64,000 nt of DNA from Blastocatellia bacterium (GCA_035315885.1 DATFXM010000058.1:10317-74316), one strand, 5' to 3'. Positions 12,145 through 54,483 are shown, numbered from the stretch's first letter. Translations and numbers: made by a program. Notes: generated from the letters alone by a model not told the origin.

Positions 12145-12314
12145 GTCTTGCTTATTCTTGCTGTGGCATTGCTGGCGCTCCTTAGCGGACCGCGGCGGCG
12201 AAAACTCAACACTCTGAAGTCGGACCTTTAAACTCGATCAGATCTCAGATCTCAAATCTCAAATCTAAAAACTCAGGACTCAGGACTCAGAACTCAGAAC
12301 TCAGAACTCAGAAC
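12131..12314. repeat. Family-S element filling the hisS-aspS spacer. (GTTCTGA)2 at 12131-12144, an ~90-nt spacer, and 11 tandem TCARRWC units at 12238-12314.
   Basis: Units TCAGATC x3, TCAAATC x2, TAAAAAC, TCAGGAC x2, TCAGAAC x3, read directly. The hisS TGA (12142-12144) is the end of the second GTTCTGA. Confidence 0.9.
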
Positions 12315-12318
12315 TACC

Positions 12319-42564: not shown

Positions 42565-45500
42565 ATGGCTCGACCAATCCGTAGACTACCTCTGTTCTTT
42601 TTATTGATCACCGCTGTTTTTCTCGCGGGCCGCTCGCCGGCTCGCTCCGACTCGACGCCGGTTCACCCCAGGCAAAAATTCGATTCCACCTATCGAAGCA
42701 GAACATCCAAGCACAAAGTGATCGTCTACGCGGAGGAGTCCGGGCTGCGCGACGCGCTTCTAGAGTCGGGAGGCCAGCTCGTCGAAGACTACGGCGCGTT
42801 CGCCTTGATGAACGCACCGCAAGCCGCGGCTGAACAGGTAAGAGCCCAATCAAGGGCCGGGTCGGGCATACGCGACGACATGAACATGGTGCTGCTCAAA
42901 GCGCGACAGTTCGATACTACGACCGATCGTCTGATGTCTTCTTCATCAATCGGACCCCTCGAAAAAGCAGACAGGCAGCTCTACCTGGTGCAGATGATCG
43001 GACCGATAAAAAAGAAATGGAGAAACGCAGTAGAAGCCAACTCTGAAGTGATCGGGTACATCCCGAATAACACGCTTCTGGTTCGCGCTTCGGCAACCGG
43101 CATCGAACAGATAAGCAGGCTCGCGGCTGAAGACAACAGTTTCGTTCAGTGGACCGGCCTTTACTTTCCGGAATACAAGATCGCGCCCGAAATCTCAATG
43201 CGTTCGGACGAAGATATTCTCGCGACCATTGAGATCGCCGTCAGCGATCCGAACGACGCAGAGGTCGATCGAGCGCTCTCGATTGGAGACGCAACGCCTA
43301 TCGGTGGGCGGGCGAGCGTCGGCGGAATTTCCGATGTACGAGTCAGCATCCGTACCAGCAGGTTGCCTGACCTCGCGCGGCTCTCAAACGTCCTGTGGGT
43401 CGAGCCGTGGACGCCGCCGCAACTACTCGACGAAAAACAGGACCAGATCCTTGCGGGAAACTACAGCGGGAGTACGGTCTCGACTGCAGGCTACGTGAAC
43501 TGGTTGCAATCGAAAGGTCTCGCAACAACGCCTGACTTTGTCGTCGATGTGGCCGACAGCGGGATCGATCAGGGCGATCTCGATCCTCAAGTCATTCACA
43601 AAGACTTTTTGAACGCCGCCGAGGTGAACCGCGTAGTCTATGCCCGGTTCGTCGGCCAGCTAAATGTTCCCCAGGCTTCCGCCGAAGACATAAGCGGTCA
43701 CGGAACACTCAATGCCTCGATCGTGGGCGGCTTTAACACCAAGACTGGATTTCCTTTCGTAGACGGGGACAACTTTCACTATGGCCTGGGAGCGCATCCC
43801 TTCGTGAAACTCGGAGCCAGCAGAATATTCGCGCCCCAGTTTACAAATCCGGACCTTCAGGAGCTGGTCTCTAATGCTTACCGCGACGGCGCTCGCATCA
43901 CCAGCAATAGCTGGGGCGCGTACAACAACTCCTACAATTCCGATTGCAGAATCTACGACGCGCTGGTGCGCGATGCGCAGCCCGCAATAGATGGCCTACA
44001 GCCGATCAACATTATCTTTTCCTCCGGTAACAAAGGCGCCGGAGGCCATCTGTCTGTACCAGGCAACGCGAAGAACGTAATCGACGTTGGAGCTACAGAG
44101 GGCTTGCGGCCCGGAACTGACGGTTGCGCAATCGACAGCACCGGCGCCGATAACGTCAACCAACTAGCGGTGTTCTCCTCAGGAGGTCCGACCGATGACG
44201 GACGCAAGAAACCCGATATCGTCGCGCCCGGAACTCATATTCAAGGGGTTCAATCGCAGTCGACGAGCTTCGATGCAAGCGGTGTATGCGGACCGATGAA
44301 CACACCTGCAGGCCAGACCCTTTACACGTGGTCTTCTGGAACAAGTCATTCGGCACCGGCGGTTGCCGGCGCCGCGGCACTGGTTCGACAGTACTTTCAA
44401 CAATCGACGGGCCACCCACCGAGCCCGGCAATGACCAAGGCGTTACTGCTGAATTCAACCACGTACGTTTCGGGAAGCGGCGGAGGCGATAGCCTCCCCG
44501 GTGACCAGCAGGGTTGGGGACTACTCAATGTCGGCAAGACGCTCGACGGAACACCTCGCATGCTGATCGATCAGGACCGTACGCTAAGCGATGCCGGCGG
44601 CAGCGTAACAATTCAGGGTTCCGTTTCCGATCCATCCAAACCGTTCCGAGTTACGCTCGGCTGGACGGATGCACCAGGAAACCCGCCGGCTCTCGGGCCA
44701 GCCATCAACGACTTGGATCTCCGGGTACAGATCGGGGGAAAGACCTACCTTGGTAACAACTTCGGCGGAGAGTTCTCTGTTGAAAATGGATCGGCCGACC
44801 ACCTCAACAACGTCGAGTCAGTCTGGTTGCCGGCGGGGGTGACGGGCAACTTCACCATCACCGTAGTAGCGGTGAATATCGCGGCTGACGGCGTCCCTCT
44901 CAACTCCGATTCTACGGATCAAGACTTTGCCCTAGTTGTTTACAACGCGTCGTCATCGACAGGAGGAGGCGGCGGAGGCGGTGGCCCCGTAGACAATCCG
45001 CCGTCGGTTACCCTGCGATTCCCCGCAGGCGGCGAGACGATCATGGTCGGAAGCACTGCGCACATCACGTGGGATGCAGCCGATGATAAAGGCATCCAGA
45101 CTCAGGTGGTGGAGTTCGCTGCCGATGGCTTTACATTCAACACAATTGCGGAGCTGGGCGGAAGCGCACGCAGCTTCGACTGGCACGTACCCGCTCTGCC
45201 TAGCCATCTGGCCCGGATCAAAGTCACGGTCCTCGATGGCGTTAACTTGCCGGTGAGTTCCACGAACGCAATACCATTCACCGTCGAGCAGGGTCCTCCC
45301 GATCTCATACCGCCGTCAGTCACCTTGCTTGAGCCGAATAGCGACTCGATTGTCGGCGGGGGCAACACGATGATCATCAAATGGAGGGAGTCGGATAACG
45401 TCGGCGTGATCGAGCGGCGGATAGAGCTCTCTACAGACAGCGGGGAGTCGTGGCAGTTGATACTTACACTGCATGCGCCAAGCAGCGGTCAGCAGCAGGT

Positions 45501-45933
45501 GTACAACTGGCAGGTGCCGGGCGAGCTTTCAACACAGCGAGGCAAGCTGCGGCTCACTGTGTTTGATGGTGCGGGGAACTCGGCATCAGCGATATCGACG
45601 GGCAAGTTCGAGGTCTGGGCGATGCCGGTCATCACCAGGGTTCAGTACGACTTTGGGGTCAGCGGCGGGAAGGATCAGCTTGAGGTTACCGGGCGGAACT
45701 TCCGAATCGGTGATTCGGTCATCATGGTAAATGATCGTGACTTAGGCAAGATCCGGTTCCAGGACCGTTTCAATACGGGCAACGGAACGTGCAGTCGATT
45801 CTTCAGCGTGGACAAGAAGCTTTCAAAGAAGCTGCCGGCGAAGACTGACGTAAACATTAGAGTGCGCACCAACACCACAGAGCAGATCTCAGCGGGGTTC
45901 AGCTTCAAACGGGACAGACCACCGGGGCAGTAG
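42565..45933 (+). CDS. Secreted S8 (subtilisin-like) serine peptidase with C-terminal Ig-like repeat domains
   Basis: Signal peptide. Catalytic triad contexts VADSGID, SGHGTLNAS, SGTSHSAPAVAGAAAL. G9 linker. Two repeated ~100-aa modules (..ITWDA.DDKGI.. and ..IKWRESDNVGV..). Confidence 0.9.
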   Translation: MARPIRRLPLFFLLITAVFLAGRSPARSDSTPVHPRQKFDSTYRSRTSKHKVIVYAEESGLRDALLESGGQLVEDYGAFALMNAPQAAAEQVRAQSRAGSGIRDDMNMVLLKARQFDTTTDRLMSSSSIGPLEKADRQLYLVQMIGPIKKKWRNAVEANSEVIGYIPNNTLLVRASATGIEQISRLAAEDNSFVQWTGLYFPEYKIAPEISMRSDEDILATIEIAVSDPNDAEVDRALSIGDATPIGGRASVGGISDVRVSIRTSRLPDLARLSNVLWVEPWTPPQLLDEKQDQILAGNYSGSTVSTAGYVNWLQSKGLATTPDFVVDVADSGIDQGDLDPQVIHKDFLNAAEVNRVVYARFVGQLNVPQASAEDISGHGTLNASIVGGFNTKTGFPFVDGDNFHYGLGAHPFVKLGASRIFAPQFTNPDLQELVSNAYRDGARITSNSWGAYNNSYNSDCRIYDALVRDAQPAIDGLQPINIIFSSGNKGAGGHLSVPGNAKNVIDVGATEGLRPGTDGCAIDSTGADNVNQLAVFSSGGPTDDGRKKPDIVAPGTHIQGVQSQSTSFDASGVCGPMNTPAGQTLYTWSSGTSHSAPAVAGAAALVRQYFQQSTGHPPSPAMTKALLLNSTTYVSGSGGGDSLPGDQQGWGLLNVGKTLDGTPRMLIDQDRTLSDAGGSVTIQGSVSDPSKPFRVTLGWTDAPGNPPALGPAINDLDLRVQIGGKTYLGNNFGGEFSVENGSADHLNNVESVWLPAGVTGNFTITVVAVNIAADGVPLNSDSTDQDFALVVYNASSSTGGGGGGGGPVDNPPSVTLRFPAGGETIMVGSTAHITWDAADDKGIQTQVVEFAADGFTFNTIAELGGSARSFDWHVPALPSHLARIKVTVLDGVNLPVSSTNAIPFTVEQGPPDLIPPSVTLLEPNSDSIVGGGNTMIIKWRESDNVGVIERRIELSTDSGESWQLILTLHAPSSGQQQVYNWQVPGELSTQRGKLRLTVFDGAGNSASAISTGKFEVWAMPVITRVQYDFGVSGGKDQLEVTGRNFRIGDSVIMVNDRDLGKIRFQDRFNTGNGTCSRFFSVDKKLSKKLPAKTDVNIRVRTNTTEQISAGFSFKRDRPPGQ

Positions 45934-48224: not shown

Positions 48225-48525
48225 CTGAGTTCAACCCCGAAGGGGTTGCGTCGTCCAGCCCAGCGTTGCCGTCCGCGGCTACCCTGGGTAGAGGCCACCG
48301 CACCCGACGCAACCCTGTAGGGGTTGCGTCTTGAACCGCAAAGCACCGATTCGTGAAGGCGACACCACCACCCCTCAAAGAGTTGCGTATGGATTTGGAA
48401 CCGCCGTTTCGCAGGTCGTTGACGCAACCCTTACAGGGTTGCGTCGGATGCGGTGCCTTTACCCAGGGTAGCCGCGGACGGCAACCCTGGGCTGGACGAC
48501 GCAACCCCTTCGGGGTTGAACTCAG
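48225..48525. repeat. MITE-like palindromic element: ~62-nt terminal inverted repeats of the GGGTTGCG/CCCAGGGTAGCCGCGGACGGCAACCCTGGG module around a ~180-nt core
   Basis: Left end 48229-48290 (GTTCAACCCCGAAGGGGTTGCGTCGTCCAGCCCAGCGTTGCCGTCCGCGGCTACCCTGGGTA) is the reverse complement of 48460-48521 apart from one mismatch. The same module occurs at 45967-46062. Confidence 0.8.
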
Positions 48526-48630
48526 GACTCAGGACTCAGCACTCAGGACTCAGGACTCAGCACTCAGCACACAGCACTCAGCACACAGCACTCAGCACTC
48601 AGGACTCAGCACTCAGCACTCAGCACTCAG
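48520..48630. repeat. 16 tandem heptamers, ACTCAGG/ACTCAGC/ACACAGC (family-S reverse arm)
   Basis: Counted directly, 16 units with no spacers. They read CTGAGTx, carrying TGA, on the minus strand. The array starts 2 nt after the stop (48633-35) of the minus-strand gene. Confidence 0.92.
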
Positions 48631-48632
48631 TC

Positions 48633-49166
48633 TCATTCGCAATGTGTTACCCGAGTCTTAATCTTGAATGTAGTCTGTTCGGGGTCGATTACCCTGTCGG
48701 TAAGGATGATGTGAAACGGTTGGGTGATTACCAACATCACCGGACACGAGTCCTCGGGAATCACCTCCCGAACAACTATCTTGACCTTTTTCCCTGACCG
48801 GACTGCTCTTTGAATCGAAACGTCATACCCTGACGAAGGCTGATTGCCCTGGTAAACCGCAACGATGCTGTGTTGCGAAAAATCGACCTCCGGCGCCGGC
48901 GGAATCGGAAAGGTGTTCGACATCGTAGCCTTCCAAAGCGACTGCCAGGCATCGTTATCATTTATCACATAGGTCGCCGCCTGCGAGTGTCCGCAGGTGA
49001 AATGCTTTAGCACGGTTCCAAACGTGATTACTCGCGCCGAGACAGGCTCTTCCGCTTCCTGCGCGCTTGCTCGATTCCCTTCCGACGGGCGGCCACGCAC
49101 ATCGCCGACGGTCGAAGCGATTAACAACAACGAAAAGAGATACACAACGCTCTTGGGGGCAGGCAC
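48633..49166 (-). CDS. Secreted PrcB_C-like domain protein
   Basis: Signal peptide. IVAVYQGNQPSSGYDVSIQ...KVKIVVREVIP...ITQPFHIILT matches my recollection of the PrcB C-terminal domain pattern. Confidence 0.5.
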   Translation of the reverse strand: MPAPKSVVYLFSLLLIASTVGDVRGRPSEGNRASAQEAEEPVSARVITFGTVLKHFTCGHSQAATYVINDNDAWQSLWKATMSNTFPIPPAPEVDFSQHSIVAVYQGNQPSSGYDVSIQRAVRSGKKVKIVVREVIPEDSCPVMLVITQPFHIILTDRVIDPEQTTFKIKTRVTHCE

Positions 49167-49269: not shown

Positions 49270-50670
49270 CTAATAGATCACCGTCACAGAAGCGCCTCGG
49301 AAGTAGTGGCTGAGTATATCCTCGTAGCCGTAGCCCTCTTCCGCCATCACTGCCGCACCTATCTGGCATAAGCCGACTCCGTGACCCCAGCCCGCACCCC
49401 AAAGCACAAACGCCTTCGGATATTCAGACCCTGGGTGATCCTCGACGTCTATGACAAACGCCGAGCTATAAAGGTGGGACCTTGAAAACGCCCTCCGAAT
49501 CTCCAGCTCCTTTCCAATAACCAGCGTCCTCCGCTCGCCTCGGATGCGAAGCATGACTATTCTTCCCGACTTGCCTCGTTGAACGGGTTCAATCCGCGAG
49601 ATACGACCGAAATCCACGTCGATCTTTTCGCGGAGCAAGTCGGAGAGCTCAGTGTTCGAATAGGCCACTCGCCATCGATAAAAGTCCGACGTTTCCTGGT
49701 CGAACCCAGGCAGGATGCGACTCAACAATTCCCGCGAGCTGGCGTTACAAAAGGCGGGCGGAGAACTTCTAATCCACCTGTTCGAATTCTCCGGCTCCTC
49801 AAGCGGCAAGTCGAAGCCTTTGGGGCTTGACCCTCGGCCATCGTAGACGCTTACCAGATACGGCACGTGCTTGTCTTCCCACGCCGCCCGAAACTCTTCG
49901 GTCATTCCCCCGCAGCTCTTCGAATATCGCGCATCGCAGATCTCTCCGCCGCAGGTCAACACCAGGCCGCGAGTGTCCCCCACCGCTCTGAACGCTTCAC
50001 TTGATAGCGCCTTGGAAATGCCCTGATATCGTTGACAGTGATCGTCCGCGCAAACGTCGAAGCCGTCGTGCGACTGGCGGTCGTACCACCGGACTCTTTC
50101 ATGCCCATCATTGGTTCCGCCAAGAGAGCCGGAATCGCCGAGGCTGGGGCGGGCCGACATCTGCGACAACAACCAGCTCCTGGAAACAATCGAGTGCGCA
50201 CGCAGCAGTTCGGATGGGGACAATGCGCTCATCTCGGAAGAGATCACGCTCACCAGGTAGTCTTCGAGCGGGAGCTCGTTTACTACCCGAAGCTGCTCGC
50301 CTGCAGCGCGCAGCGAGATCGCGCCCTGAAACACTTGCGCTTCGCGGCGCTGCCAATGAAACTCGATTCCGATCGTAACGTCTTGAACGGTGACGCGACT
50401 CACCGCAAAGTCGACCGGCGTAAGAGTCAGCGATAAGGCCTCACCAACCTCACGATAAACTCGAAAGGCGGCCGAGGTGGCGATGCCTGGCACAGGCAGT
50501 TCCGACGCTCTGGTAATTGAAACCAGACCTGACAACTGTCGGGCCTCATACTCGCCTGTCACGAGCGTTGTGCCGTCCTCCGCTCGATATGATCCAATAA
50601 GCGAGAAACGCACGATCGGTGCGGTCAACAAACCAACTCGGATCACCGGTTCTCGCTCGAACGAATTCAC
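49270..50670 (-). CDS. SpoIID/LytB-domain protein
   Basis: HDGFDVCADDHCQRYQG, YSKSCGGMTE, GHGVGLCQIGA. GTG start overlapping the upstream stop (GTGA). No N-terminal signal or TM segment is visible. Confidence 0.85.
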   Translation of the reverse strand: MNSFEREPVIRVGLLTAPIVRFSLIGSYRAEDGTTLVTGEYEARQLSGLVSITRASELPVPGIATSAAFRVYREVGEALSLTLTPVDFAVSRVTVQDVTIGIEFHWQRREAQVFQGAISLRAAGEQLRVVNELPLEDYLVSVISSEMSALSPSELLRAHSIVSRSWLLSQMSARPSLGDSGSLGGTNDGHERVRWYDRQSHDGFDVCADDHCQRYQGISKALSSEAFRAVGDTRGLVLTCGGEICDARYSKSCGGMTEEFRAAWEDKHVPYLVSVYDGRGSSPKGFDLPLEEPENSNRWIRSSPPAFCNASSRELLSRILPGFDQETSDFYRWRVAYSNTELSDLLREKIDVDFGRISRIEPVQRGKSGRIVMLRIRGERRTLVIGKELEIRRAFSRSHLYSSAFVIDVEDHPGSEYPKAFVLWGAGWGHGVGLCQIGAAVMAEEGYGYEDILSHYFRGASVTVIY

Positions 50671-51704
50671 CAGAGCAACTCCTCCGACGAAGTCATCCAG
50701 TCGAGCATCTGGTTGATCGCCTCTTCGTCAAAGCTGACTTCACGATAGATCAAGCTCATAGTTGCGTCGTCGAGCTTCTCGAAATGGCTCCGCTCCGGAA
50801 CTACCACGACTCCCGCCATGTCGATCGCGCCCGGACTGATGGTCAGCTTCTCGGCTCCCTCATTGTAGTAAACAGACGGCCGGTGAGCTGCCCTGGGAAA
50901 GAGATACACGGTCCACAACCTGTTCGAATACACCGTGACGATGTTCATCATTGGTTCGACGCTGCTTGACAGGCGTCCCAGCTCGTCGAGCACTCGGTAG
51001 ATCCACTGCTCGAGCTCATCGAGATTGCCTCCGCGAAACACGACCACCGTTCTACCGCAGCGGCCCAACGTAAAGAGCTCAAATGTATTCGAAGCAGTCT
51101 CCTCGCAGGTTGAGCAATCTTCTGAAAGCGCGGGCTCTTCGTCGAACAAATGTTCCGCGATGGGCAGCAAGCTGCTCGAACACGCTTGGAAGTGAAGATG
51201 GTCCGGCGCGGACGCGCCGCACTGCGGGCCGTTGTATAACGCGAAGAACTCGGAGCCGAGGTCACGCGCCAGCTCCAGTAGAGTTCGGGCGTTTCCTTTG
51301 ATCTCCTGTGCCCCGTGTTGTCGATCAACGATCGAGAGATGATTTGCAAGAATCGGATATGGATTGCAGAGCACAACGAGATCGCGCCATGCAATGCCTT
51401 TCTCTTCCGGCGGCAGGTTTGAATCGCAAAGAAAACATGGACGCGCGGCTACCGAGCTCTGGTCTACGGCGGCCGCAGTGCTGCGAATGCGACCGGGATT
51501 GTACTGAGCCACGACTTCGGCTTCCGCCACGGACAGGCCTTTCGTCTCGATGGCGGTGAACGCCTTATAACCCTCGCGCATCAGCGGCCAGTGCTCTCGC
51601 TGATGAAGCACCAAGGCCTTCACGCGCTGAGAAAATGTAGCTTCGCTGCTCTCCAAATACCCGGCGAGTTCAGATTCCTGGATAAATCTGTCTTCCCAAG
51701 TCAT
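50667..51704 (-). CDS. DUF4922-like HIT/GalT-superfamily nucleotidyl-transferase/phosphorylase-like protein
   Basis: RPCFLCDSNLPPEE, NPYPILANHLSIV, GASAPDHLHFQAC (HxHxQ-type motif). ATGA overlap with the GT2 stop. Confidence 0.65.
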   Translation of the reverse strand: MTWEDRFIQESELAGYLESSEATFSQRVKALVLHQREHWPLMREGYKAFTAIETKGLSVAEAEVVAQYNPGRIRSTAAAVDQSSVAARPCFLCDSNLPPEEKGIAWRDLVVLCNPYPILANHLSIVDRQHGAQEIKGNARTLLELARDLGSEFFALYNGPQCGASAPDHLHFQACSSSLLPIAEHLFDEEPALSEDCSTCEETASNTFELFTLGRCGRTVVVFRGGNLDELEQWIYRVLDELGRLSSSVEPMMNIVTVYSNRLWTVYLFPRAAHRPSVYYNEGAEKLTISPGAIDMAGVVVVPERSHFEKLDDATMSLIYREVSFDEEAINQMLDWMTSSEELLW

Positions 51705-53179
51705 CGACTGTTCATCCTCTTTCGCGCGACAATCTCAAGACTCCGCAGATAGTCTTTGTAAGAGTCGTAGCGGTTTGCAGTCGCAATCGGCAGCGACGCG
51801 TCGGAATTCCCTTCCCACCTCCGCGCAAAGTAAATCGAATCGTAGATGCGGCCGATCTCGTACTCGCGGCTAATCCTCAATGCCGCGGCGTAATCCTCGC
51901 CGTAACTCGTGTTTGGCAATCCGCCCAGACCCCTCAACAGCACTGCGTCGAACGCTCGAGGAGCACCGAGTCCATTTATCCGCAACGCATTGTTCCGGCC
52001 GTTGTCGCGCGTCCATTCACGATGGTCGATGAGACCCGGCGGAATCGGCTTCAGATCGAAGTCGACGATTGTATAAGATCCGATAACCATGCCGTAGTCG
52101 CCTTCCTGAAACCTCGCCACCATTCGCGCTAACGTTCCACTTCCGGCGTAAAGATCATCGGAGTCCAACTGAACAGCATATCGGCCGCAATGTGGACTGA
52201 ACAGCGCTTCGTTCCAGCATCCGCCTATGCAGAGGTCGCGCCGCTCCGGTCGCAGATGAATCAGTCGAGAGTTCGATTGAGCTATCCCCGACAGGATCTC
52301 GGTTGTGCGGTCAGTCGAATGGTTGTCGACTACGATGACGTTGAAATCAAAGTCCGCATCCTGTGAGAGCGCGCTTTCAACTGCATCTGTGATCGTGCGC
52401 TCGCGGTTGCGCACCGGGATGATCACGCTCGCTCTCACTGTTTCGGAGTCGCGCAAAGCAGCATTCGGACTCTTGAATTGAGGCTCGAGAAAAGCACCGA
52501 TCCTCTTCAAGTGCTCGGTGACTATCTGCTCCATTTCGATCTGATACTCGCGTTGTCGCGGATCGACGTAGTCGAACTGTTTCTCACCAGATGATCGCAG
52601 GTCCATCGGCACGCGCGTGTACAGGAATTCGGGTATCCGGCTTATCCGAAAATCGATAGATAACTTGAGGCGCAGGTCGTAAAGAGCCCCCCAGCGAAGT
52701 TGCTGCGGCAACTCCCCATGTCTTGAAAGAGCAGCCTTGATTGCAGACGTCGAGAAAAGACAAAGCGATCCGAAGTCGAAACTATCGCGACAGCTCCCAA
52801 ACTGGAAGTCAATCAACGGATGATCCGAGATCCCCTCGGCGGACTCTTCCCTGAAATCGGAGTAGACCATCCCGGTCTCTGGATCATCGGCAATCGCGGT
52901 CAGTCTCTCCAGCATTCTCGAGCCGGGCCTGACCCAATCCGAAGCGCGGACCCAAAGAAGATAGTCTGAATCGAGGTTGGCAATGACTTGGTTCAGTCCG
53001 GTTGCCGTGGCTGCGGTGTCTTCGATGCGCACGACCTTTTGTGACCGCTCTTCTGGAAGTGACTCGGAGTCTCCGCACAAAAAGATCCTGTCGACCATAG
53101 GGCTCGCAGCAAACTCCTCGACGAGTGCGCCCGTTTGTTCGTTTGCCGCGCTTGTTAAGGTCACGCTGACGGTTGGCAT
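51701..53179 (-). CDS. Two-module family 2 glycosyltransferase
   Basis: The C-terminal half is canonical GT-A (SVIIPVRNRE..VIVVDNHSTDRT..QLDSDDLY). The N-terminal ~230 aa is a degenerate GT-A-like module. Confidence 0.8.
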   Translation of the reverse strand: MPTVSVTLTSAANEQTGALVEEFAASPMVDRIFLCGDSESLPEERSQKVVRIEDTAATATGLNQVIANLDSDYLLWVRASDWVRPGSRMLERLTAIADDPETGMVYSDFREESAEGISDHPLIDFQFGSCRDSFDFGSLCLFSTSAIKAALSRHGELPQQLRWGALYDLRLKLSIDFRISRIPEFLYTRVPMDLRSSGEKQFDYVDPRQREYQIEMEQIVTEHLKRIGAFLEPQFKSPNAALRDSETVRASVIIPVRNRERTITDAVESALSQDADFDFNVIVVDNHSTDRTTEILSGIAQSNSRLIHLRPERRDLCIGGCWNEALFSPHCGRYAVQLDSDDLYAGSGTLARMVARFQEGDYGMVIGSYTIVDFDLKPIPPGLIDHREWTRDNGRNNALRINGLGAPRAFDAVLLRGLGGLPNTSYGEDYAAALRISREYEIGRIYDSIYFARRWEGNSDASLPIATANRYDSYKDYLRSLEIVARKRMNSR

Positions 53180-53874
53180 ACCGGCCTGAGCACCATTACA
53201 CCGGACATCCGGTGTCGCTTAAGAAACGCTTCCAGCTCTTCATCGATAACAGTTCGAGCGGTTCGGCTCGCATGGCGCAGCAAGAGACGAGTCCCGCAGA
53301 TTGCGAGCCCGACGTGAAACGCGTCCAGGTTTTTCCTTGTAGAAGCGAAGACCAGAATATCGCCCGTGCGGATAATGGATGAGCTCTGAACAACCCATCG
53401 CTTGGGGAAGCTGCGGAAGGTCACGGTCCGCGGCTTCACTCCAGGCACAATATTCAAATGCCGGCGGTGCTTGCGCGCCGCGGCGCCCAGGGTTAAATCA
53501 CGCACAAAGCCTGCCGCCTGATTTTGGCGAGCCCAACCGACCATGTAGTGATTTCGCTTTGTCCAGGACATCTGGCCGTCCTGATACCTTATTCGTTTGA
53601 GCACACTGACGAAGTCTTTCATGTTTCGCGATTGAGAAGCGGCAAGGACAGTTTCGATGAAAGTCACACAATCAAATCCCCGGGCCGAGACGCTAAGCTT
53701 CTCATTTTGATCGGGACCACCGCCTAGCGGGTTGTCCAGATACGGCCGGCCCAGAAAATAACCCGACACTCCTTCGAGCTTCGAGCTCAAATCCTTGTTC
53801 CCAAAAGCGCTCGATATCGCCGCTTCGATATCGGCTTTGTCCCTTCGAGCAACTGAGTCGCGTTGTGTTGTCAA
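53161..53874 (-). CDS. DUF1460 (N-acetylmuramoyl-L-alanine-amidase-like) protein
   Basis: GRPYLDNPLGGG, FDCVTFIETVLA, IRYQDG, RNHYMVGWARQN, GDILVF, FHVGLA, LRHAS. No signal peptide. Confidence 0.7.
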   Translation of the reverse strand: MTTQRDSVARRDKADIEAAISSAFGNKDLSSKLEGVSGYFLGRPYLDNPLGGGPDQNEKLSVSARGFDCVTFIETVLAASQSRNMKDFVSVLKRIRYQDGQMSWTKRNHYMVGWARQNQAAGFVRDLTLGAAARKHRRHLNIVPGVKPRTVTFRSFPKRWVVQSSSIIRTGDILVFASTRKNLDAFHVGLAICGTRLLLRHASRTARTVIDEELEAFLKRHRMSGVMVLRPVCQPSA

Positions 53875-54124
53875 GATCGTCTCGACGAAAGCTGACTAAA
53901 GCGATTGTCCCCAAGGTTCGTTGCAGATCCAAGCCCGCGAAATAGACTTGAGGTAGCCCTCACCCCTCAACGCCTAATTAACTTAGACTGAACGCGGCGC
54001 GCCATTATAGCAAAAGGCCAGCGCACCACCGAGTTGCCGACCCGGCTCGCGTACTCTATTCTCTTCTGGTTTCATTGAAGCGCACGCGAACCAAACTGGA
54101 AGCTGTGCGAGAAAGCGAGAGCGA

Positions 54125-54349
54125 ATGATAATTCCATTCAGCGAGATTCGATCGTTGATTCCATATTACATCTTTAACGAGTTCGGCCAACTGACTGGGC
54201 AGTATGTTCACTACGACGAAATCATATGTGAGCGAGAGGGCGGCAGGGTCCGCATCTGGCTTAACAAGGAATCGCATGAGGCTCGCGATCCAGAGCGTCT
54301 GATATGCGATTATTCCGAAGACGATTTGAAAGGGCTGCCGAGGCAGTAG
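54125..54349 (+). CDS. Small hypothetical protein (74 aa)
   Basis: Non-repetitive ORF. Its TAG (54347-54349) is the end of the first GCAGTAG unit, the same arrangement as at other bona fide genes. No homology recognised. Confidence 0.35.
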   Translation: MIIPFSEIRSLIPYYIFNEFGQLTGQYVHYDEIICEREGGRVRIWLNKESHEARDPERLICDYSEDDLKGLPRQ

Positions 54350-54467
54350 GCAGTATGCAGTAGACAGTAAGCAGTAGGCAGTAGGCAGTAATACGCGACT
54401 CACTGTTTTGTTAGCAAAGGTCAAAATCGATAGAGCAACCTGCCTACTGCACACTGCCTACTGCCTA
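54343..54467. repeat. Family-Q element. Seven GCAGTAG-type units (54343-54391), spacer, CTGCCTA-type arm (54440-54467).
   Basis: GCAGTAG GCAGTAT GCAGTAG ACAGTAA GCAGTAG GCAGTAG GCAGTAA ... CTGCCTA CTGCACA CTGCCTA CTGCCTA. It is followed by AAGGAG and ATG 54484. Confidence 0.9.
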
Positions 54468-54483
54468 CTTTCAAGGAGAAGAA

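Follow-up and report, generated by a model that had tools for sequence, protein, structure and literature searches.

A minus-strand four-gene cassette (positions 49270-53874), found in the 64,000-nucleotide stretch of Blastocatellia bacterium DNA that we analysed (hereafter the window), probably serves to salvage or catabolise imported peptidoglycan fragments in the cytoplasm with non-canonical enzymes, although the exact chemistry is inferred. We base this reading on the domains and motifs of the four proteins, their lack of export signals, a conserved linkage accompanied by gene fusions, and neighbours for muropeptide import and MurNAc catabolism in other genomes. The module is widespread but biochemically uncharacterised; its GT2, DUF4922 and SpoIID-like members all lack biochemical and genetic data, which counts against the reading.

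Four overlapping genes on one strand

The first gene (53161-53874, minus strand; TTG start) encodes an AmiA-like protein of 237 aa from the NlpC/P60-type cysteine amidase family formerly called DUF1460. Its ORF cannot be extended upstream, as an in-frame TAG lies at 53898-53896, 21 nt before the TTG. It is followed on the same strand by a two-module GT2 gene (51701-53179; 492 aa, ATG at 53179), a DUF4922 gene (50667-51704; 345 aa) of the GDPGP1-type HIT nucleotidyl-transfer family in the GalT branch, and a SpoIID/LytB-domain gene (49270-50670; 466 aa, GTG start). Read directly from the DNA, the AmiA-like stop and GT2 start overlap by 19 nt (53161-53179), the GT2 stop and DUF4922 start by 4 nt in ATGA (51701-51704), and the DUF4922 stop and SpoIID-like start by 4 nt in GTGA (50667-50670). 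A preliminary description of this DNA had reported these three junctions and the motifs FDCVTFIETVLA, HVGLA, LRHAS and HLHFQ, all of which are present. Its proposal of a single operon finds support in conserved synteny, in the overlaps at the junctions and in naturally fused genes; a fixed stoichiometry of the four products remains an inference from the overlaps and has not been demonstrated.

Domain and structure analysis of the four proteins

In a Pfam search, the AmiA-like protein matched PF07313 across profile positions 2-200 of 202 (E value 2e-37; 129 bits, where the Pfam gathering score is 27). It aligned with the Bacteroides uniformis AmiA structures 4h4j, 4q5k and 4q68 with modest similarity (E value 4e-14), and alignment to 4h4j indicated that the catalytic Cys (FDCVTF versus VDCTTL), the His (FHVGLA versus AHMGIA) and the second His (LRHAS versus LVHAS) are kept. 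These PDB entries are said to come from work on B. uniformis AmiA, a DUF1460 protein, by Xu et al. in 2014. B. uniformis AmiA specifically cleaves GlcNAc-1,6-anhydroMurNAc-peptide (cited in PMC4600125), an activity known for this family member only. Given this activity, the function of DUF1460 is no longer unknown, and the substrate measured for the B. uniformis enzyme suits the context of the cassette. AmiA of B. uniformis and B. thetaiotaomicron is described as periplasmic (PMC4600125), whereas the window protein has no signal, and the same is true of 19 among 20 orthologs.

The C-terminal module of the GT2 protein (51701-52459, residues 241-492) is the predicted catalytic GT-A module. It matched PF00535 at residues 251-388 (Pfam E value 8e-24, 84.9 bits against a threshold of 23.3) and is 57-77% identical across phyla by tblastn. 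Its DSDD motif (D339-S-D-D342) is invariant in alignments of 39 and 22 sequences and aligns to the DXD (DSDD) of K4CP. The N-terminal module (52460-53179, residues 1-240) appears to be a diverged GT-A-like domain: it had no Pfam match above threshold, with only faint GT2 similarity (E value 0.05-0.15), and the position equivalent to DSDD reads RASDW and is not conserved, leaving no second functional DXD site. The earlier suggestion of two GT2 modules nonetheless holds up, since profile comparison of the two modules with hhalign gave a probability of 69% (E value 4e-5), and the AlphaFold model (pLDDT 86.5), in which the N-terminal module adopts a beta/alpha fold, matched tandem GT-A enzymes best in Foldseek (2z86, E value 2e-20; 8vh8, E value 4e-13), aligning both halves with K4CP over 545 columns. 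The model also matched the GT2 structures TarP, TarS, SpsA and 6p61 (TMt 0.88). As judged from sequence and model, then, this is a tandem GT-A protein with one intact and one degenerate module. The best structural matches over both halves are the K4CP chondroitin polymerase and the PmHS2 heparosan synthase, from which the cassette protein differs in keeping the DXD solely in its C-terminal module, in being about 100 residues shorter and in showing no hint of polymer export. A bifunctional tandem GT-A polymerase is ruled out by the lack of a DXD in the N-terminal module.

The DUF4922 protein matched PF16269 (Pfam E value 7e-50, 169 bits against a threshold of 23.6), and PF26216 (GDPGP1_C) is recorded for P0001, which is 98% identical to it, and for most homologs. 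Within H169-L-H171-F-Q173, an alignment of 57 sequences shows no change at H169, H171 or Q173; H122 is also invariant, and C90 and C93 are nearly so (>=90%). The DUF4922 domain is also found in animal GDPGP1, a GDP-D-glucose phosphorylase (PMC7041677). The VTC2/GGP and GDPGP1 GDP-hexose phosphorylases share with the window protein the DUF4922 and GDPGP1_C domains and an identical HLHFQ nucleotidyl-histidine motif; however, those enzymes are eukaryotic and act in ascorbate synthesis or NDP-sugar quality control, whereas the bacterial clade is tied to GT2 and cell-wall recycling genes. Sequence places the window protein in the GDP-hexose phosphorylase family; the family reaction (GDP-hexose + Pi -> hexose-1-P + GDP) is only presumed for it, as sequence does not reveal which nucleotide or sugar it uses.

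The SpoIID-like protein matched TIGR02669 (SpoIID_LytB; E value 1e-51, 176 bits against a threshold of 83.3) and PF08486 (SpoIID; E value 1e-21), and its AF2 model matched only the SpoIID structures 5i1t (E value 6e-13) and 4rwr in Foldseek. E146, in SSEMS, is invariant in 36 sequences and aligns to E101 of Clostridioides difficile SpoIID (5txu), which is the catalytic glutamate of that enzyme (PMC6221140). H201, C207, H211 and C212 are invariant, with spacing near-identical by inspection to the C. difficile Zn motif (H134, C140, H145, C146); HMMER did not cleanly align this segment and the model has low confidence there. The cassette resembles the SpoIIP-SpoIID engulfment pair of Bacillus and Clostridioides, in which an amidase is paired with a SpoIID lytic transglycosylase that works on peptide-free glycan, in its domain pairing, in the conserved catalytic Glu and, tentatively and by inspection alone, in a putative Zn motif. 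It differs in that the engulfment SpoIID is membrane-anchored, extracytoplasmic and partnered with SpoIIM, whereas the cassette protein has no anchor and carries an additional N-terminal beta domain (approximately residues 1-120); the cassette amidase is NlpC/P60-like and thus of another family than SpoIIP, and it comes from a non-sporulating host.

Conservation, fusions and genomic neighborhood

A DUF4922 protein is encoded by at least 593 species genomes. In 61 of 66 assessable loci across seven phyla GT2 is the gene directly upstream of DUF4922, the SpoIID-like gene comes next after DUF4922 in 28 of the 66, and an AmiA-like gene was found in 18 loci. Overlapping or fused junctions predominate by nearest-start estimates: the GT2/DUF4922 junction is a 4-nt overlap in 16 of 59 loci and an in-frame fusion in 5, and the DUF4922/SpoIID-like junction is a 4-nt overlap in 13 of 27 and a fusion in 1. 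Natural fusions join GT2 to DUF4922 (P0187, P0215, P0151), DUF4922 to SpoIID (P0249) and GNAT to DUF4922, the last pointing to an amino-sugar substrate. The linkage of the cassette is therefore not due to chance, and the gene-neighbourhood survey called for at the outset found it kept across the seven phyla; apart from one MAG labelled Heliomicrobium, the full four-gene set stays largely within Acidobacteriota. GT2 and DUF4922 form the universal core, and the SpoIID-like protein and amidase are frequent yet variable partners; since the latter two are absent from about half of the loci, they are not obligatory beside the core pair.

Recurrent neighbours in other genomes included an AmpG-family muropeptide permease in 21 loci (TIGR00901, E value 1e-42), MurQ in 11 loci (NF003915, E value 6e-112), NamZ, an M15 (M15_4) peptidase, D-Glu catabolism genes and BadF-type sugar kinases. 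We further found GH3, an AmgK-like kinase, a D-lactate-dehydrogenase-like FAD oxidase, a DgcN-like and MR/MLE pair and a phosphohexomutase. Within the 64-kb window there were no homologs of AmpG, MurQ, NagZ, NamZ, MurT/K or a kinase, a point against the salvage reading, whose recycling context is consequently borrowed from other phyla.

A locus of this type is already on record for Tannerella forsythia, where Tanf_08345-08385 forms a single GppX-regulated transcript that allows the organism to grow on muropeptides (PMC5388701). Its genes are given in the order 'xanthan lyase'-gtf-gtf-lytB-ampG-ybbC(namZ1)-murT-murK-murQ (Ruscitto et al. 2017, PMC5388701; NamZ preprint 10.1101/2021.12.02.470905). 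Bacteroidales loci in our survey read Golvesin_C protein-GT2-DUF4922-SpoIID-(GH9/CE4)-AmpG, and NamZ, MurQ and a BadF kinase lie close by; the leading protein is a different, exported one with sub-threshold Amidase_3 matches. The GT2-DUF4922-SpoIID order is common to the window and the Bacteroidales loci L083 and L084 and fits gtf-gtf-lytB, and the window trio is 35-60% identical to the Bacteroidales proteins (tblastn). We infer that the trio may correspond to the Tannerella gtf-gtf-lytB genes, an equivalence that rests on synteny and not on the Tanf sequences. The window differs in that an AmiA-like gene takes the first position, where those loci have the exported Golvesin_C/Amidase_3-like protein, and in having no AmpG, NamZ or MurTKQ nearby. 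The Tannerella homologs are still listed as 'function unknown' in the literature, in keeping with the initial remark that no characterised function is known for this combination.

Predicted cellular location

To look for export signals, we applied a Kyte-Doolittle hydropathy scan to the longest possible ORFs, a crude measure that is not equivalent to SignalP-type prediction. None of the four window proteins had an N-terminal hydrophobic segment (maximum 15-residue hydropathy of 0.25-1.67 within the first 60 residues). Such a segment was likewise found in 0 of 36 SpoIID-like, 0 of 74 DUF4922, 1 of 68 GT2 and 1 of 20 AmiA-like orthologs by the same scan, compared with 10 of 13 exported GH9-CE4 proteins used as a control. 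The AmiA-like ortholog at L007 has a lipoprotein signal. The preliminary description had seen no export signal in the four N-termini, which agrees with these scans. Together with P0249, in which SpoIID is fused to a nucleotide-dependent HIT enzyme, the missing signal peptides indicate that the cassette is located in the cytoplasm, and with the recycling-gene neighbours they support the earlier proposal of cytoplasmic glycan or muropeptide processing over periplasmic hydrolysis.

Proposed pathway and competing explanations

We propose that the substrate would be imported GlcNAc-(1,6-anhydro)MurNAc with or without its stem peptide. The AmiA-like protein would strip the stem peptide from GlcNAc-anhMurNAc-peptide in the cytoplasm, as AmpD does, although this activity is inferred. 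Hypothetically, the near-obligate GT2 and DUF4922 pair would then act on the disaccharide by a glycosyl transfer linked to an NDP-sugar. In the version we prefer, an inverting GT2 would run in reverse (glycoside + NDP -> NDP-HexNAc) and a GDPGP1-type HIT enzyme would convert NDP-HexNAc + Pi to HexNAc-1-P + NDP, so that on balance the beta-1,4 bond would be phosphorolysed without ATP and NDP would be catalytic. The SpoIID-like protein might make or break the MurNAc glycosidic or 1,6-anhydro bond on peptide-free sugars, which would provide the missing step of anhMurNAc processing where AnmK is absent, as in T. forsythia. Two points of chemistry stand against this scheme. Leloir GT2 enzymes are normally synthetic, and to reverse them on an ordinary beta-1,4 bond would be thermodynamically uphill without tight coupling; the substrate that characterised SpoIID requires is polymeric denuded glycan, whereas AmpG is known to import disaccharides.

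The proposed substrates are those of canonical AmpG/AmpD/NagZ/AnmK/MurQ recycling (with its AmgK/MurU bypass), namely AmpG-imported GlcNAc-anhMurNAc-peptides, and the logic is the same: the peptide is removed, the disaccharide is split and the 1,6-anhydro bond is dealt with. However, no cassette protein is homologous to AmpD (Amidase_2), NagZ (GH3) or AnmK, and the chemistry would be that of a cysteine amidase, a Leloir-GT/HIT phosphorylase and a lytic-transglycosylase fold. In its most specific form, GT2 and DUF4922 would be a new two-enzyme glycoside phosphorylase, with a reversed Leloir GT working on catalytic NDP and the HIT protein releasing HexNAc-1-phosphate, beside a SpoIID-fold enzyme that opens or transfers the 1,6-anhydroMurNAc bond and a cytoplasmic cysteine amidase. 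We regard this full combination as speculative and rather improbable. If true, it would be an ATP-sparing recycling route replacing AmpD, NagZ and AnmK in Acidobacteriota, Bacteroidota, Planctomycetota, Ignavibacteriota and Syntrophales. A simple 'NagZ replacement' interpretation is weakened by L013 and L049, two loci in which the GT2-DUF4922 pair has a GH3 next to it that is apparently cytoplasmic.

The cassette could instead be biosynthetic, with DUF4922 making an NDP-sugar from a sugar-1-phosphate as a GalT/MurU/GlmU analogue, GT2 building a glycoconjugate or feeding wall synthesis from salvaged amino sugars, and the SpoIID-like and AmiA-like proteins supplying building blocks. This respects the usual direction of GT2 catalysis and the K4CP- and PmHS2-like tandem GT-A architecture, and would suit the AmgK-like anomeric kinase that 6 Syntrophales loci carry close to the pair. 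T. forsythia lacks glmU (PMC5790795) and so needs another route to UDP-GlcNAc, and its operon was earlier described as 'glycosylation-related' (PMC5388701). We still consider synthesis unlikely: the missing N-terminal DXD excludes a bifunctional polymerase, neither TM segments nor export partners are present for a product, the surrounding genes are catabolic (MurQ, the D-lactate-dehydrogenase-like oxidase, D-Glu catabolism), and the DUF4922 members characterised so far are phosphorylases that destroy NDP-sugars (PMC7041677). The salvage of imported fragments also fits T. forsythia, an organism without AnmK whose AmpG takes up GlcNAc-MurNAc and GlcNAc-anhMurNAc (PMC7670621) and which is missing glmS, murA and murB as well as glmU (PMC5790795).

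Hydrolysis of the sacculus by the amidase and SpoIID-like protein after non-classical export, with GT2 and the HIT protein merely co-transcribed, seems very unlikely. Characterised SpoIID and B. uniformis AmiA do all work outside the cytoplasm (PMC6221140, PMC4600125), and the L007 ortholog fits such a placement; the SpoIID-like orthologs nevertheless had no hydrophobic N-terminus even in the longest possible ORF, one is fused to a nucleotide-dependent DUF4922 domain, and different phyla retain the 4-nt overlaps with genes for cytoplasmic enzymes. The notion that four unrelated genes with no common pathway happen to be adjacent could appeal to flanking genes that vary among genomes and to a complete set found largely in one phylum, but it is effectively refuted by synteny and fusions, with GT2 and DUF4922 adjacent in nearly all assessable loci and three kinds of natural fusion accompanying the conserved overlapping junctions.

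Gene order, protein families and catalytic residues

The cassette consists of four consecutive minus-strand ORFs, encoding an AmiA-like protein (window positions 53874-53161, 237 aa, TTG start), a GT2 protein (53179-51701, 492 aa, ATG start), a DUF4922 protein (51704-50667, 345 aa, ATG start) and a SpoIID-like protein (50670-49270, 466 aa, GTG start). ORF listing and direct reading of the junctions confirmed the coordinates in the preliminary description: 19 nt run from the GT2 ATG to the AmiA-like stop, and the next two junctions are ATGA (GT2/DUF4922) and GTGA (DUF4922/SpoIID-like). A promoter scan of 48.5-54.6 kb found neither a sigma-70-like promoter nor a terminator-like site after the SpoIID-like gene, though such a scan is uninformative for this phylum.

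The domain calls in that description were upheld, as all four proteins gave firm profile matches. The AmiA-like protein matched PF07313 (formerly DUF1460; E = 2e-37), and the Cys, His and His positions were conserved when it was aligned to the solved B. uniformis AmiA (4h4j). The GT2 protein matched Glycos_transf_2 at residues 251-388 (E = 8e-24), with an invariant D339-S-D-D342 that aligns with the DXD of chondroitin polymerase. The top structural matches of its AlphaFold model (pLDDT 86.5, pTM 0.87) were tandem GT-A enzymes: K4CP (2e-20, both halves), PmHS2 and LH3. Its N-module (residues 1-240) and C-module (residues 241-492) were related by profile-profile comparison (E = 4e-5), and the DSDD-equivalent position was not conserved in the N-module. 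We read the protein as one putatively active and one degenerate GT-A domain, with activity inferred from motif and model. Two other assignments were rejected: a bifunctional polymerase, because the N-module lacks a DXD motif, and a sugar nucleotidyltransferase N-module, because a relaxed Pfam scan of 41 N-modules gave only faint GT2 matches and one faint NTP_transf_3 match.

The DUF4922 protein matched the profile of that name (E = 7e-50), with H169-L-H171-F-Q173 and H122 invariant and C90 and C93 nearly so (at least 90% of sequences). It had no match among PDB sequences at E <= 1; the animal GDP-D-glucose phosphorylase GDPGP1 has the same domain (PMC7041677). The SpoIID-like protein matched PF08486 (E = 1e-21) and TIGR02669 (E = 1e-51) and was 46-51% identical to Bacteroidales orthologs. 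Its E146 aligned with E101 of C. difficile SpoIID, which is catalytic (PMC6221140), and its invariant H201, C207, H211 and C212 resemble the C. difficile Zn site by inspection, in a segment that did not align cleanly. SpoIID structures were the sole structural matches to its model (pTM 0.77), and an extra N-terminal beta domain in that model had no structural match. All four proteins look catalytically competent, with activity inferred from sequence alone.

Conservation of the linkage across phyla

In a survey of one genome per species, at least 593 genomes carried a DUF4922 protein, and we analysed the 80 best loci, which came from Acidobacteriota, Planctomycetota, Bacteroidota, Ignavibacteriota, Syntrophales and other "delta" lineages, Verrucomicrobiota and Fibrobacterota. 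The preliminary description had proposed such a neighbourhood survey, and the linkage proved to be conserved across phyla. The two-module GT2 gene lay directly upstream of DUF4922 in 61 of 66 assessable loci, and GT2 C-modules were 57-77% identical between phyla. The SpoIID-like gene was present in 34 loci and was the next gene in 28 of the 66. The AmiA-like gene was found in 18 loci; Acidobacteriota have it upstream, on the strand of the other genes, and Syntrophales have it downstream, on the complementary strand. The window's DUF4922 and GT2 proteins were at most 66% identical to their closest relatives, which came from Blastocatellia/Acidobacteriota MAGs and make an acidobacterial host probable. 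A relative at 56% identity had the same four genes between wholly different flanks. Among 59 GT2-to-DUF4922 junctions there were 5 in-frame fusions and 27 overlaps, and among 27 DUF4922-to-SpoIID junctions 1 fusion and 15 overlaps; these counts assume, for each downstream gene, the start codon closest to the preceding stop, a choice that biases them toward small gaps.

Cellular location and natural fusions

Without a dedicated signal predictor, we searched each ORF in its longest possible form for hydrophobic segments at the N-terminus and found none in the four window proteins. Such segments were present in 0/74 DUF4922, 1/68 GT2 and 1/20 AmiA-like orthologs, compared with 10/13 exported GH9-CE4 control proteins, in keeping with the earlier claim that the cassette lacks export signals. 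A single AmiA-like ortholog, in a cassette-type locus on the Acidobacteriota chromosome OY969418.1 (L007:5600-6475), carries a textbook lipoprotein signal (MKKLVAYLLALLIPIVPGC); at least one lineage therefore exports the cassette amidase but not its partners.

Natural fusions independently support a cytoplasmic location. Among representatives of the DUF4922 family, P0187, P0215 and P0151 are GT2-DUF4922 fusions, P0249 is a DUF4922-SpoIID fusion, and P0154, P0158, P0192 and P0220 have a GNAT acetyltransferase fused N-terminally to DUF4922. Long DUF4922 ORFs (477-501 aa) at loci L050, L065 and L059 may be GNAT fusions too, though their extra residues are unannotated. The GNAT fusions hint at an amino-sugar substrate, possibly one requiring re-N-acetylation.

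Genomic neighborhood

All ORFs adjoining the loci were clustered without presupposed families, and recurrent clusters were then annotated. These included AmpG-family muropeptide permeases (21 loci), an exported GH9 + CE4 deacetylase (13 loci), MurQ etherases (11 loci), cytoplasmic M15_4 peptidases encoded immediately downstream of DUF4922 in Syntrophales (8 loci) and AmgK-like kinases (6 loci). BadF-type sugar kinases, mostly exported GH3 enzymes, a phosphohexomutase, NamZ and a D-lactate-dehydrogenase-like FAD oxidase also recurred, as did, in Planctomycetota, a DUF1611 and MR/MLE pair resembling DgcN/DgcA of D-glutamate catabolism. In two planctomycete loci (L013:3407-4486 and L048:1-715), DgcN-like DUF1611 and MR/MLE racemase-family genes adjoin GT2-DUF4922 and AmpG. 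This suggests that D-glutamate or dipeptide catabolism is tied to muropeptide import in planctomycetes. Searching the 64-kb window by tblastn with representatives found no AmpG, MurQ, kinase, GH3, M15 or GH9 homologs.

Relation to the Tannerella forsythia operon

The Bacteroidales loci share their gene order with Tanf_08345-08385 of T. forsythia, so this locus type is already on record and is not categorically new; the enzyme combination is nonetheless non-canonical and its enzymology unassigned. The T. forsythia operon ("xanthan lyase", gtf, gtf, lytB, ampG, ybbC/namZ1, murT, murK, murQ) is a single GppX-activated transcript that supports growth on muropeptides (PMC5388701). A 2021 preprint (10.1101/2021.12.02.470905) describes Tanf_08345, 08350 and 08355 as genes of unknown function and LytB as a putative lytic transglycosylase. 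AmpG of T. forsythia imports GlcNAc-MurNAc and GlcNAc-anhMurNAc, and the organism grows on the latter without AnmK, by an anhMurNAc route "to be explored" (PMC7670621); it also lacks glmS, glmU, murA and murB (PMC5790795). Full-text literature searches found no bacterial DUF4922 study, no later characterisation of these operon genes, and nothing relevant on an AnmK-independent anhMurNAc route or on what homologs of GDP-L-galactose phosphorylase do in bacteria.

In every Bacteroidales locus examined, the position of Tanf_08355 (the second gtf) is held by a DUF4922 HIT-family gene. By synteny, Tanf_08355 is probably a DUF4922 HIT enzyme and its published annotation as a glycosyltransferase wrong, though the Tannerella sequence itself was not compared; no Tannerella homolog was among the best 120 matches to a Bacteroidales SpoIID-like query, all of which were closer relatives. 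The Bacteroidales operon starts with an exported protein of ~1000 aa with Golvesin_C and also fn3 domains (L083:4536-7556 and L084:4673-7531), two orthologs of which gave sub-threshold Amidase_3 matches (25.4 and 22 bits; cut-off 27). This protein, whose T. forsythia counterpart is annotated "xanthan lyase", is probably no lyase but a muramoyl-L-alanine amidase. A non-homologous amidase therefore probably occupies the position of the AmiA-like gene in Bacteroidales.

A possible role in peptidoglycan-fragment salvage

To our knowledge, the AmpG/AmpD/NagZ/AnmK route of Gammaproteobacteria is the sole peptidoglycan-recycling pathway that is well worked out. Large phyla, gut and oral Bacteroidota among them, take up muropeptides via AmpG, and their cytoplasmic steps are incomplete. 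The cassette is a conserved, apparently cytoplasmic unit with intact catalytic motifs and predicted activities, and it travels with genes for muropeptide import and MurNAc catabolism; we therefore consider it probable that it is a peptidoglycan-fragment salvage module, and propose it as the best candidate for the missing steps. Linkage, fusions, absent export signals and recycling neighbours likewise support the earlier interpretation of cytoplasmic muropeptide processing by a conserved unit.

The division of labour among the enzymes is an inference. The AmiA-like protein would be an AmpD analogue; B. uniformis AmiA cleaves GlcNAc-1,6-anhMurNAc-peptide, as cited in PMC4600125. GT2 and DUF4922 would jointly cleave the GlcNAc-(anh)MurNAc bond in an NDP-linked and possibly phosphorolytic reaction, which would account for their near-obligate pairing and fusions; the GNAT fusions and the nearby mutase fit amino-sugar-1-phosphate chemistry. 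The SpoIID-like protein may act on the MurNAc/1,6-anhydro bond of peptide-free sugars. We know of no assay in bacteria, in this context, for three of the four enzyme types.

This reading has weak points: the window has no recycling genes near the cassette, and the presence of the SpoIID-like and amidase genes varies between loci. Two further weak points are that reverse glycosyltransferase chemistry is energetically costly and that SpoIID is known to prefer a polymeric substrate. The main rival is a biosynthetic role for GT2 and DUF4922, which we think unlikely. Periplasmic action, despite the one lipoprotein amidase, seems to us highly improbable, as SpoIID fused to a nucleotide-dependent enzyme (P0249) is hard to reconcile with it and 0/36 SpoIID-like orthologs have a hydrophobic N-terminus. 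Chance adjacency, for which the variable outer genes leave nominal room, is scarcely credible beside the pairing and fusions seen across phyla. Resolving the enzymology of the cassette could uncover new chemistry of glycosyl transfer, account for the consumption in microbiomes of released muropeptides, which act as immune signals, and offer targets in MurNAc-auxotrophic pathogens.

Other features near the cassette

A secreted protein of the dentilisin PrcB family (PrcB_C, E = 1e-11) is encoded at 48633-49166 on the minus strand, 103 nt downstream of the SpoIID-like gene, with no terminator-like site between. On the plus strand, 42565-45933 encodes a 1122-aa protein with subtilisin-like motifs (GHGT..., SGTSHSAP). 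The two are possibly a protease-partner pair, one not kept beside the cassette in other genomes. Four arrays of 7-nt tandem repeats, each with a different unit, were found in the window: TCAGAAC x11 (12238-12315), ACTCAGC x16 (48520-48630), AGGCAGT x7 (54341-54390) and CTGCCTA x4 (54440-54469). The last three bracket the cassette region, and long ORFs across the arrays (e.g., 48353-48661 and 54056-54454) are probably repeat artefacts. In other genomes, ORF cluster 3 lay within 8 kb of the cassette at 16 loci from several phyla, its members varying widely in length; at one of these loci (L035:12240-13499), a response-regulator receiver domain (REC, E = 2e-30) is fused to an LpxC deacetylase domain (E = 5e-71).
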